Of a stretch of DNA of 64,000 nt, positions 32,813-36,150 are shown piece after piece. How positions within the stretch are numbered: position 1 is the stretch's first letter; each line of letters opens with the position of its first letter. A model generated the notes under the pieces. That model saw only the letters and a list, made by a program, of their open reading frames with translations, was not told where the DNA came from and ran no database searches. This DNA comes from a virus. Taxonomy: Duplodnaviria > Caudoviricetes. Made by a program: the position numbers and the translations under genes. Location: IMG/VR virus record IMGVR_UViG_3300021425_002620; one strand, 5' to 3'.

Positions 32813-33208
32813 TTAGAACGAGAATGTAGCTGTTGCTGTGATCTCGCCACGCTCTTCTGCTTCTAGGTCATATGATGTGCCTAGTTCTAGTTCTACATTG
32901 TCCATCATTGCTGGTACATATGTTGCACCAAACTTTAGTGTTGGTAGAGTGTCGAACTCGTCACCCAGTGTGAAACCACCATCGTTGTCCCATACTGATA
33001 GAGTTGTGTCAGCTGTTAGGCTTAGTGGACCGTCAACCATTGGTTGCCACTCTAGTTCTGGTGTGATTGTTAGTGTAGTTGCTTCTGCATCAAACTTGTG
33101 CTCTGCTACTACGTCTGTGTTTAGCGCCAAACCTGGAACTGGTAAGTCCATGGCTGTCGCTGATGTTGCAGCCATTGCGGCTACCATTGCTAATACTGCT
33201 GTACGCAT
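32813..33208 (-). CDS. outer-membrane beta-barrel/porin-like protein
   Basis: Signal peptide, alternating beta pattern, C-terminal Phe. Confidence 0.65.
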   Translation of the reverse strand: MRTAVLAMVAAMAATSATAMDLPVPGLALNTDVVAEHKFDAEATTLTITPELEWQPMVDGPLSLTADTTLSVWDNDGGFTLGDEFDTLPTLKFGATYVPAMMDNVELELGTSYDLEAEERGEITATATFSF

Positions 33209-33368: not shown

Positions 33369-34001
33369 TTAAAACTTTACAGCAAAAGCCACTAGTGCTT
33401 CTCTGTCTACTTTGTTAAAGTCCGCATCCATTGTTTGCATTACTGCTACTGAAACTACAGTGTTTGATGTAACGCTGAACCTTGTGCCAACTTTTCCATA
33501 ACTGTCTGACTTACGAAAATCTAGAAAATTTCCATCATCTGATTTGAAGTCATAACCTAATTCGACAAAAGGAACTAAGACTGAAATGTTTCTTAATTCA
33601 ATTCCTGCATATGGACTAAGCAATAGTTCACTACCGTCAATTGAATCGCCAAAGTCGAAATGTGCTTCTGCTGCACCATATCCTGTAAAAGCACCTAATG
33701 GAACTTCACCGCGTGTTGACACGTTGATACGGTAATCCTGTACACTGTTGTCATCAATAATTTGAACGCCAACATTTACAGGTCTGTTTACTGTGAATAC
33801 ACCTAGCCTACGTGAGTCTGCTGAAAAATCACGAGAAGCGCCTGTACCAAGCGACACTCCAAATTTTTCACCATGAGCTGACACATATACTCCGGTATTA
33901 TCAAAGTCGTCTGCTAAAGCAGAAGTAGTTAGGCCAAAAAACAAGCCTAATGCTAATATAATATTTCTCATTTTATTATTTCCTTTATTTTTGTTTGCCA
34001 C
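33369..34001 (-). CDS. outer-membrane beta-barrel protein (true start probably MRNII)
   Basis: Signal peptide ALA, alternating beta strands, C-terminal Phe. Confidence 0.7.
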   Translation of the reverse strand: MANKNKGNNKMRNIILALGLFFGLTTSALADDFDNTGVYVSAHGEKFGVSLGTGASRDFSADSRRLGVFTVNRPVNVGVQIIDDNSVQDYRINVSTRGEVPLGAFTGYGAAEAHFDFGDSIDGSELLLSPYAGIELRNISVLVPFVELGYDFKSDDGNFLDFRKSDSYGKVGTRFSVTSNTVVSVAVMQTMDADFNKVDREALVAFAVKF

Positions 34002-34059
34002 CTGGCAAACACAATACTTACTTATGATGGATAACTATTTTTATGTTTAATTCTGGCAG

Positions 34060-34085
34060 AAAAGAAAAGCACCCGAAGGTGCTTT
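34060..34085 (-). terminator. intrinsic terminator ending the tmRNA transcript
   Basis: AAAGCACC-UUCG-GGUGCUUUUCUUUU on minus strand. Confidence 0.85.
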
Positions 34086-34452
34086 CCTGCTATTTTTGGT
34101 AACAAGGTATAACTACCCCGTAGCGATCACGCCGCTAATGCAAAGTTTTCGTTTGCGTTTGTTTTGTTTCTTGCGTTAACCGAGCTTGCGCCGGACAACT
34201 CCACTCATCTATGCCGTGTATCGATCCTAGTTCGCCCCCATCATAAAAACACTATCCACAACACTTTGGCTTTTGTCTGCCTGCTCTCCAAGCACGGAAA
34301 TCGATAACCCATTTCGTCACACACATTCCTAGTAGTGCGGCTAAACTTGTGTATTGTATTCCTGTCCAAATTAATGCCATTATAGTGTCCTTATGGTGGA
34401 GGCGCCGGGTACCGCCCCCGGGTCTACTCCGTCGTCAAATTGCTTCAACATT
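34086..34452 (-). ncRNA. ssrA: circularly permuted (two-piece) tmRNA; outer ends approximate
   Basis: Acceptor piece first (T-arm CCGGG-GGCGGUA-CCCGG, CGCCUCC-A-CCA ending 34394); 154-nt IVS; coding piece starts GGGGGCG at 34239; 7-bp acceptor stem with G3.U70; tag ANENFALAA* at 34156-34127. Confidence 0.93.
34252..34380 (-). CDS. 42-aa ORF inside the tmRNA intervening segment
   Basis: AAGGA SD 7 nt before ATG; MALIWTGIQYTSLAALLGMCVTKWVIDFRAWRAGRQKPKCCG. Confidence 0.6.
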   Translation of the reverse strand: MALIWTGIQYTSLAALLGMCVTKWVIDFRAWRAGRQKPKCCG

Positions 34453-34458
34453 GTATAT

Positions 34459-34490
34459 TATTTATAACACACTCAGACCGAGTAAGTCAA
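34459..34490 (-). promoter_or_regulatory. overlapping early-type and late promoters of tmRNA
   Basis: TTGACT at 34490-34485 and TATAAATA at 34466-34459. Confidence 0.6.
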
Positions 34491-34776: not shown

Positions 34777-35005
34777 TCTTTTTTATTTTATTACTTTCAT
34801 GTTTTATTAGTAGTGCATTGACTTCATCTGTTTTACGCAACCAACCGTCTTCATCTACTATGTAAACATCACCTGGGCTATATAAGACGGTCTTGTCAGG
34901 AATTTTATTACCATCCTTATCAAAGCCCATTACTTCTCCGGGCCAGTCGCCTTCTACTCTAAATCTATTTAATCCGCTATGTACCGTATAATCTATCCAA
35001 AACAT
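34766..35005 (-). CDS. hypothetical protein
   Basis: Track ORF. Confidence 0.65.
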   Translation of the reverse strand: MFWIDYTVHSGLNRFRVEGDWPGEVMGFDKDGNKIPDKTVLYSPGDVYIVDEDGWLRKTDEVNALLIKHESNKIKKNEV

Positions 35006-36150
35006 TAACTCAATATATCAGCGATACGATGTGCTAATTTATTAAACCACATTTTATCGTGTCCTTTTGTTGTCTCTGCGGCTGTGCCTATTCTAATACC
35101 GCTTGTTTCGACAAAAGAACGTGGATCATTTGGCACACCGTTTTTATTGACAGTGATGCCGTTTTCTTCTAGTAAGTCAGCGGCTTCTCTGCCACTGTAT
35201 TTACTACTAGACAAGTCCATAAGAATTATATGCGAATCAGTACCTCCTGTGAGTATTTTGATGCCACGCTCGTTAAACACTGCACACATTTCTTGTGCAT
35301 TATCAACAACACGGCATGCATAATGACGGAAGTCAGGGTCATTTGCTTCTACAAATGCTTGTGCTTTGGCAGCAATAATGTTCATTAGTGGACCGCCTTG
35401 TGTTCCTGGAAAGATTGCTGAATTAATTTTCTTTGTATAGGCTGCATTGTTCCAAAGAATAATACCGCCACGTGGGCCTCTTAGAGTTTTATGTGTAGTT
35501 GATGTAACAAAATCTGCATAAGGTATAGGACTTGGATATGCATGTCCTGCAACAAGACCCGAGTAATGTGCCATGTCAACTAATAGATAAGCACCTACAT
35601 GATCTGCAATTACTCTAAATGCTTCCCAATCAATTTGTCTTGGATATGCACTTGCACCAGCGACAATCATTTTAGGTTTAACTTCAACTGCTTGTTTCAT
35701 TATAGCATCATAGTCTAGCCAACCTGCTTCGTCTACACCATAGTGATGTGCTTCATAAACTTTACCAGAAATATTTACAGGTGCACCATGGCTTAAATGG
35801 CCGCCGCTTGCTAGATCCATTCCAAGTATACGATCGCCTGGCTTTAAAAATGCAAGATAAATTGCAGTGTTTGCATTGGCTCCACAGTGAGGTTGGACGT
35901 TAGCAAACTCACATTCATATATTTCTTTAAGTTGATCTATTGCAAATTGCTCAATTTCGTCCATATGCTCGCAGCCGTTGTAATAACGCTTGCCTGGATA
36001 ACCTTCTGCATACTTGTTAGTAAACACTGAACCACATAGATTCATTACACTATGGCTTGCAAAGTTTTCACTTGCAATTAATTCAATAGTAGAATGTTGC
36101 CTGTCTACTTCTCTATCTAAAATTTCGTATATTCGTTTATCCATTACCAA
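35005..36150 (-). CDS. glyA: serine hydroxymethyltransferase
   Basis: LIASEN, KYAEGYPGKRYY, GGHLSHG, DMAHYSGL, TTHKTLRGPRGG, SGIRIGT. Confidence 0.98.
   Translation of the reverse strand: MVMDKRIYEILDREVDRQHSTIELIASENFASHSVMNLCGSVFTNKYAEGYPGKRYYNGCEHMDEIEQFAIDQLKEIYECEFANVQPHCGANANTAIYLAFLKPGDRILGMDLASGGHLSHGAPVNISGKVYEAHHYGVDEAGWLDYDAIMKQAVEVKPKMIVAGASAYPRQIDWEAFRVIADHVGAYLLVDMAHYSGLVAGHAYPSPIPYADFVTSTTHKTLRGPRGGIILWNNAAYTKKINSAIFPGTQGGPLMNIIAAKAQAFVEANDPDFRHYACRVVDNAQEMCAVFNERGIKILTGGTDSHIILMDLSSSKYSGREAADLLEENGITVNKNGVPNDPRSFVETSGIRIGTAAETTKGHDKMWFNKLAHRIADILS

Follow-up and report, generated by a model that had tools for sequence, protein, structure and literature searches.

A protein-coding gene of 42 codons is nested in the excised spacer of a permuted tmRNA gene from a marine T4-like virus. 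To judge from the comparison with its relatives, it is a real gene under purifying selection. The explanation that we prefer, and to which we assign a probability of about 0.7, is that the spacer constitutes an exchangeable slot, and that the accessory gene which it holds here, on the ssrA transcript, encodes a helical and probably membrane-associated peptide of 42 residues. In what follows, the window is the whole stretch of DNA that was analysed, with a length of 64,000 nucleotides (IMG/VR record IMGVR_UViG_3300021425_002620). The existence of a gene in the spacer had been proposed in an initial annotation based on the sequence of the window alone.

The permuted tmRNA gene and its genomic context

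ARAGORN calls a permuted tmRNA at 34036-34486 on the minus strand with the tag ANENFALAA*, which is the tag given in the initial annotation. Two Rfam models align with the window above their gathering cut-offs: (i) tmRNA_permuted (RF04321; 91.1 bits, threshold 47; extent 34455-34127); and (ii) alpha_tmRNA (RF01849; 78.6 bits, threshold 50; extent 34469-34131). As in alpha-type permuted tmRNA, the order on the minus strand is acceptor piece with CCA, intervening segment and coding piece. The sequence contains the acceptor stem GGGGGCG/CGCCUCC, with G3.U70 present, and the tag frame (ANENFALAA) has a hydrophobic tail of the ALAA type. The presence in the window of an alpha-type permuted (two-piece) ssrA gene is confirmed. 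Both ARAGORN and the Rfam alpha_tmRNA model, which had been put forward as the means to fix the ends of the pieces, call a permuted tmRNA, and the positions that had been read from the sequence (CCA end at 34394, coding start at 34239 and a spacer of 154 nt) all agree with ARAGORN, Rfam and the sequence itself. The locus comprises the following elements:

34459-34490, minus strand: ssrA promoter, with TTGACT at 34490-34485, an 18-nt spacer and TATAAA at 34466-34461 (sequence)
34394-34455, minus strand: acceptor (tRNA-like 3') piece, which ends in the encoded CCA at 34396-34394 (Rfam, ARAGORN)
34240-34393, minus strand: intervening segment (IVS) of 154 nt, in insert state in both Rfam alignments and outside the mature two-piece tmRNA
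34382-34393, minus strand: 5' strand of the closing helix, TAAGGACACTAT, including the SD AAGGA at 34392-34388 (RNA fold)
34252-34380, minus strand: 42-codon gene, with ATG at 34380 and TAG at 34254-34252 (ORF list, purifying selection, structure model, hydropathy)
34244-34255, minus strand: 3' strand of the closing helix, ATAGTGTTTTTA, including the stop TAG (sequence, RNA fold)
34243-34240, minus strand: 4-nt leader TGAT between the closing helix and the presumed RNase P site (sequence)
34086-34239, minus strand: coding piece, which starts with GGGGGCG at G34239 (ARAGORN, Rfam, sequence)
34156-34127, minus strand: tag reading frame, with stop TGA at 34129-34127 (ARAGORN, Rfam, sequence)
34058-34087, minus strand: intrinsic terminator with a 10-bp stem, a UUCG loop and a U-run (sequence; scanner palindrome at 34066-34085)

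The ssrA promoter is missing from the list produced by a consensus scanner because this scanner accepts only a T as the sixth base of the -10 box. Both the promoter and the stop codon of an upstream gene of 104 aa are overlapped by a T4-type late box, TATAAATA (34466-34459). The arrangement TTGAC-N17/18-TATAAAT is likewise found ahead of the tmRNA in the loci L119, L120, L123 and L124, where relatives of the nested gene occur.

The virus is a marine T4-like myovirus whose NrdB is ~66% identical to those of cyanomyoviruses and of Pelagibacter phage HTVC008M. The window also has curli genes, which are typical of the Melnitz/pelagimyophage group. Directly downstream of the tmRNA terminator, and on the same minus strand, two small proteins are encoded (32813-33208 and 33369-34001), whose N-termini look like signal peptides and whose sequences alternate in the manner of beta-barrels. 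Two genes upstream of the tmRNA lies a serine hydroxymethyltransferase-like gene (35005-36150, minus strand; 381 aa), beyond which there are a glutaredoxin-like gene, a PAAR-like gene and nrdB.

Coding status of the nested gene

In the sequence, the SD AAGGA is followed, after 7 nt, by the ATG of an ORF that nearly fills the spacer and that sits in the loop of the 12-bp helix closing the IVS. Every coordinate that the initial annotation had given for this SD-N7-ATG arrangement and for the 42-codon frame (34380-34252) is correct. According to shuffling of the window locus alone, a spacer-filling ATG-ORF equal to that of the window would arise by chance with p ~0.02.

Ten distinct nucleotide versions of the ORF, at eleven loci, were available for comparison. 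One relative, on a TARA contig, came from a protein search, and it is the only one among 1.84 billion representatives covered by a word-index search and a full HMMER scan. The rest came from degenerate DNA patterns for two peptide motifs, which were run on viral and metagenome contigs. The metagenome scan was mostly unspecific (119 loci, 5 of them true), and the locus L245, retrieved with the second pattern, was discarded as a false positive.

All ten versions have exactly 42 codons and an AAGGA or AGGAG box 7 nt ahead of the ATG, and the SD, at this distance, persists in each of three upstream settings: (i) within the closing helix; (ii) in the loop; and (iii) in the 3' trailer. Pairwise dN/dS values between copies range from 0.00 to 0.19, with dS up to 0.87, and the variable alignment columns are distributed as 7/2/23 over codon positions 1/2/3 (chi-square p = 1.3e-5). 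Furthermore, the frame of the 42-codon gene is the only one which is free of stops in all ten copies. A second open frame of 42 codons is present on the same strand at 34241-34369; it has stops in all the relatives and was set aside as a product of chance, since the frame is broken in every one of them. Because the length of 42 codons and the SD are kept, dN/dS is 0.00-0.19, the changes concentrate in third positions and no other frame is open in all the copies, the ORF is regarded as a genuine gene. Judged by these comparisons, it is a real protein-coding gene under purifying selection, nested in the excised spacer, as had been claimed from the window alone. The comparison across related phage ssrA loci that had been suggested together with that claim found the SD and the frame kept, and a bias towards synonymous sites.

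A contig of 171 nt from one marine metatranscriptome spans 34215-34385 in the variant of locus L115, which is weak evidence of expression; carry-over of DNA is possible in this material, and contigs do not give the ends of an RNA. Within the ORF, the promoter-like sequence ATGGCA-16-TACAAT matches 9 of 12 positions; it falls in conserved codons and was treated as a chance occurrence.

The predicted peptide

A structure model (pLDDT 77.9) predicts a single helix at residues 3-36, followed by a flexible basic tail which carries a charge of +4 and ends in Cys-Cys-Gly. The Kyte-Doolittle maximum over 19 residues is 1.46, a borderline value for a membrane span, so that insertion into the membrane is not assured. 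It is likely, though not certain, that the peptide crosses the membrane once or is associated with it. The initial annotation had described a small membrane protein with a basic Cys-Cys tail: the prediction supports the tail, together with a helix, whereas the hydrophobicity is only borderline for the membrane span.

The databases give no functional lead, since (i) Pfam has no match for the peptide at E <= 1; (ii) the match to phrog_19977 is weak (E = 0.0029, 18.7 bits, residues 9-38) and maybe due to hydrophobic composition alone; and (iii) the comparison with the Atlas yielded scores of 0.81 or lower, with no useful match. Among cultured phages, tblastn found no match for the window peptide or for the peptide of family H, one of the ORF families found in other tmRNA spacers. 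The window peptide and family H have in common a WRAG-basic motif (5/8 identities; E = 0.014 in a single comparison), which is not taken as evidence of homology.

The closing helix

The fold of 34225-34410 has an energy of -61.7 kcal/mol (z = -3.83), and in it the 12-bp helix is stacked on the acceptor stem. In the folded precursor of the window, the SD is base-paired, and so is the start region. Of the 66 unique viral IVSs, 63 have a closing helix (median of 11 pairs vs. 4.1 in shuffles), and the cargo is always within the loop of this helix.

The position of the SD relative to the helix varies among the loci that carry the 42-codon gene. In L119, the helix is TAAACACACTA/TAGTGTGTTTA and the SD is found in the loop, not in the helix; this looks like the ancestral form. 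In L122 and L308, the SD is in the helix and a G stands opposite G at the position facing the second G of the SD. In the window, L115, L124 and L337, a T faces this second G, which results in G.U, and in the unrelated L022 family a C at the same position of the helix results in G-C.

Location of the gene and exchange of the spacer

The gene lies within the IVS in seven loci (window, L115, L119, L122, L124, L308 and L337). The remaining four (L120, L121, L123 and L266) have it in the 3' trailer, where it starts 14 nt past the complete Rfam tmRNA match; in L120, there is no terminator between the tmRNA and the trailer gene. Therefore, at 11 of 11 loci, every known copy belongs to a portion of the pre-tmRNA which is absent from the mature tmRNA. 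As for the tags of two of these loci, L120 (11868-12372) and L121, ARAGORN reports AADKTATL*, a sequence overlapping with the last part of the trailer ORF, while the real tag frame, located upstream, is ANSNFAPSDYALAA; cargo ORFs can thus mislead the calling of tmRNA tags.

Between loci, the IVSs are 79-99% identical and the flanking pieces are usually far more diverged (60-93% for acceptor pieces, 50-80% for coding pieces). The window and L122, for instance, share 95.5% of the IVS vs. 67% of the acceptor piece and 59% of the coding piece. The loci L308 and L123 have a near-identical acceptor piece and the same peptide variant, with the gene in the IVS of the former vs. the 3' trailer of the latter. 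The locus L337 is a mosaic, similar to L124 in its acceptor piece and where its coding piece begins, and to the window in its tag region and terminator; it demonstrates that recombination has taken place within the tmRNA gene. From the higher similarity of the IVSs, the placement of the gene in L308 and L123, and the mosaic structure of L337, it can be concluded that the ORF-bearing spacer moves as a cassette between ssrA alleles. Recombination through conserved flanking sequences is the simplest route for it.

Downstream of homologues of the 104-aa gene, the IVS of the tmRNA measures 29-193 nt and consists of hairpins, non-coding inserts or ORFs of other families. Since the spacer varies at this syntenic site, the 42-codon gene is dispensable for the tmRNA.

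Spacer genes in other phages

An exact 20-mer taken from the acceptor piece occurs in 118 viral loci, which between them have 70 unique spacers of 8-215 nt. A sense ATG-ORF fills at least 75% of the spacer in 14 of the 19 distinct viral IVSs with a length of at least 100 nt; across 500 shuffles, the number of such spacers averaged 0.78 and never exceeded 6. The spacer ORFs form about eleven unrelated families, which include hydrophobic, strongly basic, acidic and Cys-rich peptides, and those other families with diverged members have dN/dS values of 0.18-0.32 at deeper divergence. Family H matches phrog_16066 (E = 7e-10) and is also found free-standing, with its own C-terminus, in ~24 viral loci, so ordinary small phage genes have been recruited to the slot. 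Six other families have no stop codon of their own within the IVS and terminate only beyond the presumed RNase P site, at a TAG in the opening bases of the coding piece. In the 112 bacterial ssrA loci that contain this acceptor 20-mer, all the IVSs measure 3-82 nt, which bears out the premise of the initial annotation that alphaproteobacterial spacers are normally short. In these phages, tmRNA spacers are thus a common, exchangeable slot for small genes.

Other observations concern the remaining spacers. Some of them recur unchanged across viral contigs and lack a spacer-filling ORF: (i) a 121-nt IVS (L005, L079, L082 and L118); (ii) a 127-nt IVS (L052, L056 and L088); and (iii) a 79-nt IVS (L002, L008, L027, L057 and L084). 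They look like structured non-coding inserts, and a search of them with Rfam gave no family besides tmRNA. The cultured alphaproteobacterial phages RcRudolph, RcSimone-Hastad and DSS3_MAL1, which have the same acceptor type, carry spacers of ~98 nt with no ATG-started ORF. Two of these cultured phages, both from Rhodobacter (L484, RcRudolph, 732-829; L486, RcSimone-Hastad), and a viral contig (L089) have in common a conserved GC-rich spacer of ~98 nt with a shared core, which lacks an ATG-started ORF and may be a conserved RNA element. In RcRudolph (L484; OP009285.1), the 'hypothetical protein' RCRUDOLPH_61 of GenBank (624-959) is drawn over an unannotated permuted tmRNA, of which it covers the acceptor piece, the spacer and the start of the coding piece; it is probably a mis-annotation. 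Finally, the 146-nt IVS of L441 has a longer ORF, with two CxxC pairs and a zinc ribbon-like appearance, that runs on into the coding piece.

Proposed mechanism and alternative explanations

In the reading that we prefer, the gene, by its place in the spacer, is transcribed from the strong early-plus-late ssrA promoter within a pre-tmRNA of ~395 nt. Owing to its location in the loop of the closing helix, the tRNA-like domain would still be able to fold and to be cut, by RNase P 5' of G34239 and by 3' processing at the CCA (34394). Ribosomes would load mainly during RNA synthesis, before the 3' strand that pairs with the SD exists; translation is probably co-transcriptional because the SD and the AUG emerge ~130 nt ahead of that strand. 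Upon termination at the UAG in the 3' strand, the helix would close, the precursor would mature and the two tmRNA pieces would be released. The tmRNA sequences conserved on both sides could, in turn, provide the homology for recombination between co-infecting phages, so that small genes of many families would be swapped in and out. We infer the translation from the precursor and its timing, as well as the membrane location of the peptide and its biological role. Some findings count against this reading: the base-paired SD and start region should limit initiation in the window allele, the hydrophobicity of the peptide is borderline, and the linkage to tmRNA at 11 of 11 loci, in two arrangements, is not predicted by a pure hitch-hiker model.

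The exclusive linkage of the 42-codon gene to tmRNA may reflect a functional tie. An alternative built on such a tie, in which the gene and the tmRNA form one module, seems to us rather unlikely. Translation of the nested ORF would, as had been suggested in the initial annotation, gate tmRNA maturation, with ribosomes melting the closing helix or occluding the RNase P site, or else the peptide would act in trans-translation or tag-dependent proteolysis. It would account for the presence of the gene inside the pre-tmRNA (IVS or 3' trailer) at all eleven loci despite diverged tmRNA alleles and different neighbours, for the changes that preserve pairing in the closing helix (G.U in the window, G-C in the L022 family), and for the six families whose TAG lies beyond the RNase P site, in which processing would give a non-stop mRNA. 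As regards a regulatory ORF of the leader-peptide or attenuator type, in which translation as such would count and not the peptide, the location of the SD and the stop in the closing helix speaks in favour and the strong conservation of the peptide speaks against; a cis-acting ribosome sensor would not need strong amino-acid conservation. Moreover, syntenic relatives keep intact tmRNAs with 29-nt hairpin spacers, unrelated peptides (basic, acidic, hydrophobic) occupy the same slot, and family H exists outside tmRNA genes too; the 42-codon gene is also found in the 3' trailer at four loci, and L119 has its SD in the loop instead of the helix. The short-spacer relatives and the diversity of the cargo argue that coupling is not required. 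We give slightly less credence to a bifunctional pre-tmRNA, in which ribosomes would open the closing helix and each round of translation would hold back both RNase P and the processing of the 3' end; where the frame of a family overruns the RNase P site, a non-stop mRNA would arise and its product would be tagged by the same tmRNA. If that were true, the phage would control how much peptide is made relative to rescue RNA, or their relative timing, during infection.

The IVS is far more conserved than its flanks and its presence varies at the syntenic site, as would be expected from a selfish or neutral mobile spacer, in which the IVS and its ORF would spread via recombination at the conserved tmRNA flanks and be tolerated without benefit. 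A precedent would be the 23S rRNA IVS of Coxiella, described as a selfish element with an ORF that is apparently not expressed (PMC4990558). Nevertheless, the strong purifying selection at dS of up to 0.87 and the maintenance of the SD in three contexts argue that the product is made and matters, and no mobility enzyme function is plausible for a helix of 42 residues, all of which makes this explanation improbable. The least probable of all is a chance ORF in a non-coding structured spacer. It is true that open frames of 42 codons are not rare at ~40% G+C, that the window has a second one on the same strand, and that long IVSs of the L005, L052 and RcRudolph types appear to be non-coding. But the p of ~0.02 at the window locus, dN/dS <= 0.19, the third-position bias (p = 1.3e-5) and the breaking of the alternative frame in the relatives stand against it, and the comparative data have refuted it already.

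Comparison with known systems

The exchangeable slot with an accessory gene, i.e., the reading that we prefer over the above alternatives, has partial parallels in the literature. In marine myophages (Melnitz, pelagimyophages), phage-encoded two-piece tmRNA has been published (PMC9004378). It shares with that of the window the alpha-type permuted ssrA gene, the occurrence in marine T4-like phages and the early promoter upstream. But while that article makes no mention of spacer contents or ORFs, the spacer of the window contains a selected gene and serves as a cassette site. In a 2025 tmRNA database, the cargo of permuted IVSs consists of a tRNA-Ala gene in one case and a repetitive element in another (PMC11915505); the word ORF is absent from its text, whereas the IVS of the window carries a protein gene. 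The homing endonuclease genes reported there belong to group I introns in the T-loop of intron-form tmRNA, not to permuted IVSs. The insert of the window was rejected as an intron of this kind, which would have its core in the T-loop and a LAGLIDADG ORF: only tmRNA models of Rfam match, the insert comes after the CCA, and its ORF, of 42 codons, is without a Pfam match. As for the enzymes that process tmRNA, they are "probably" RNase P and tRNase Z according to a review (PMC3985003).

The closest analogue is found in rRNA. A 23S rRNA IVS with an S23p ORF is known from Coxiella and Leptospira; in Coxiella, it is excised by RNase III and its ORF is decaying and apparently not translated (PMC4990558). 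Both this IVS and that of the window are ORF-bearing segments closed by a helix within the precursor of a stable RNA, excised and not religated, horizontally acquired and dispensable. In contrast to the S23p case, with rRNA as host RNA and RNase III as enzyme, the window has tmRNA, presumed tRNA-type processing, an ORF under strong purifying selection and a retained SD. The IVS of the window was not accepted as a member of the 23S rRNA group, given that its host RNA is tmRNA, instead of helix 25 or 45 of 23S rRNA, and that Pfam has no match at E <= 1; it is an analogue only.

Protein genes co-transcribed with stable RNAs include the ORFs of the T4 tRNA cluster, tyrT-tpr of E. coli and tufB behind tRNAs. 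The 3'-trailer copies (L120, L123 and L266) resemble tyrT-tpr, with an mRNA and a stable RNA on one precursor. But while all those genes lie between or after complete RNA genes, the ORF of the window lies between the halves of a single RNA. T4-type phages also show modular shuffling of small early genes via conserved promoter/stem-loop flanks (PeSL). The spacer cassettes are PeSL-like, in that small accessory ORFs are swapped via short conserved flanks, which here are the halves of the tmRNA acceptor stem and the closing helix. The initial annotation knew of no described case, and a full-text literature search for protein genes in tmRNA spacers likewise gave no published example.

Implications

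Until now, the spacers of permuted tmRNA genes have been regarded as filler to be discarded. What emerges here is a phage-specific slot that is occupied repeatedly by small genes under selection and that has recombination arms already in place on both sides. It houses small phage proteins beyond the reach of ordinary annotation. Gene callers and tmRNA finders both mishandle such loci, as can be seen from the tag of L120 and the CDS of RcRudolph. In addition, these precursors would represent a compact natural system in which ribosomes and tRNA-processing enzymes compete on one RNA, and they suggest a site where cargo may be inserted into phage and bacterial ssrA genes without losing tmRNA function.
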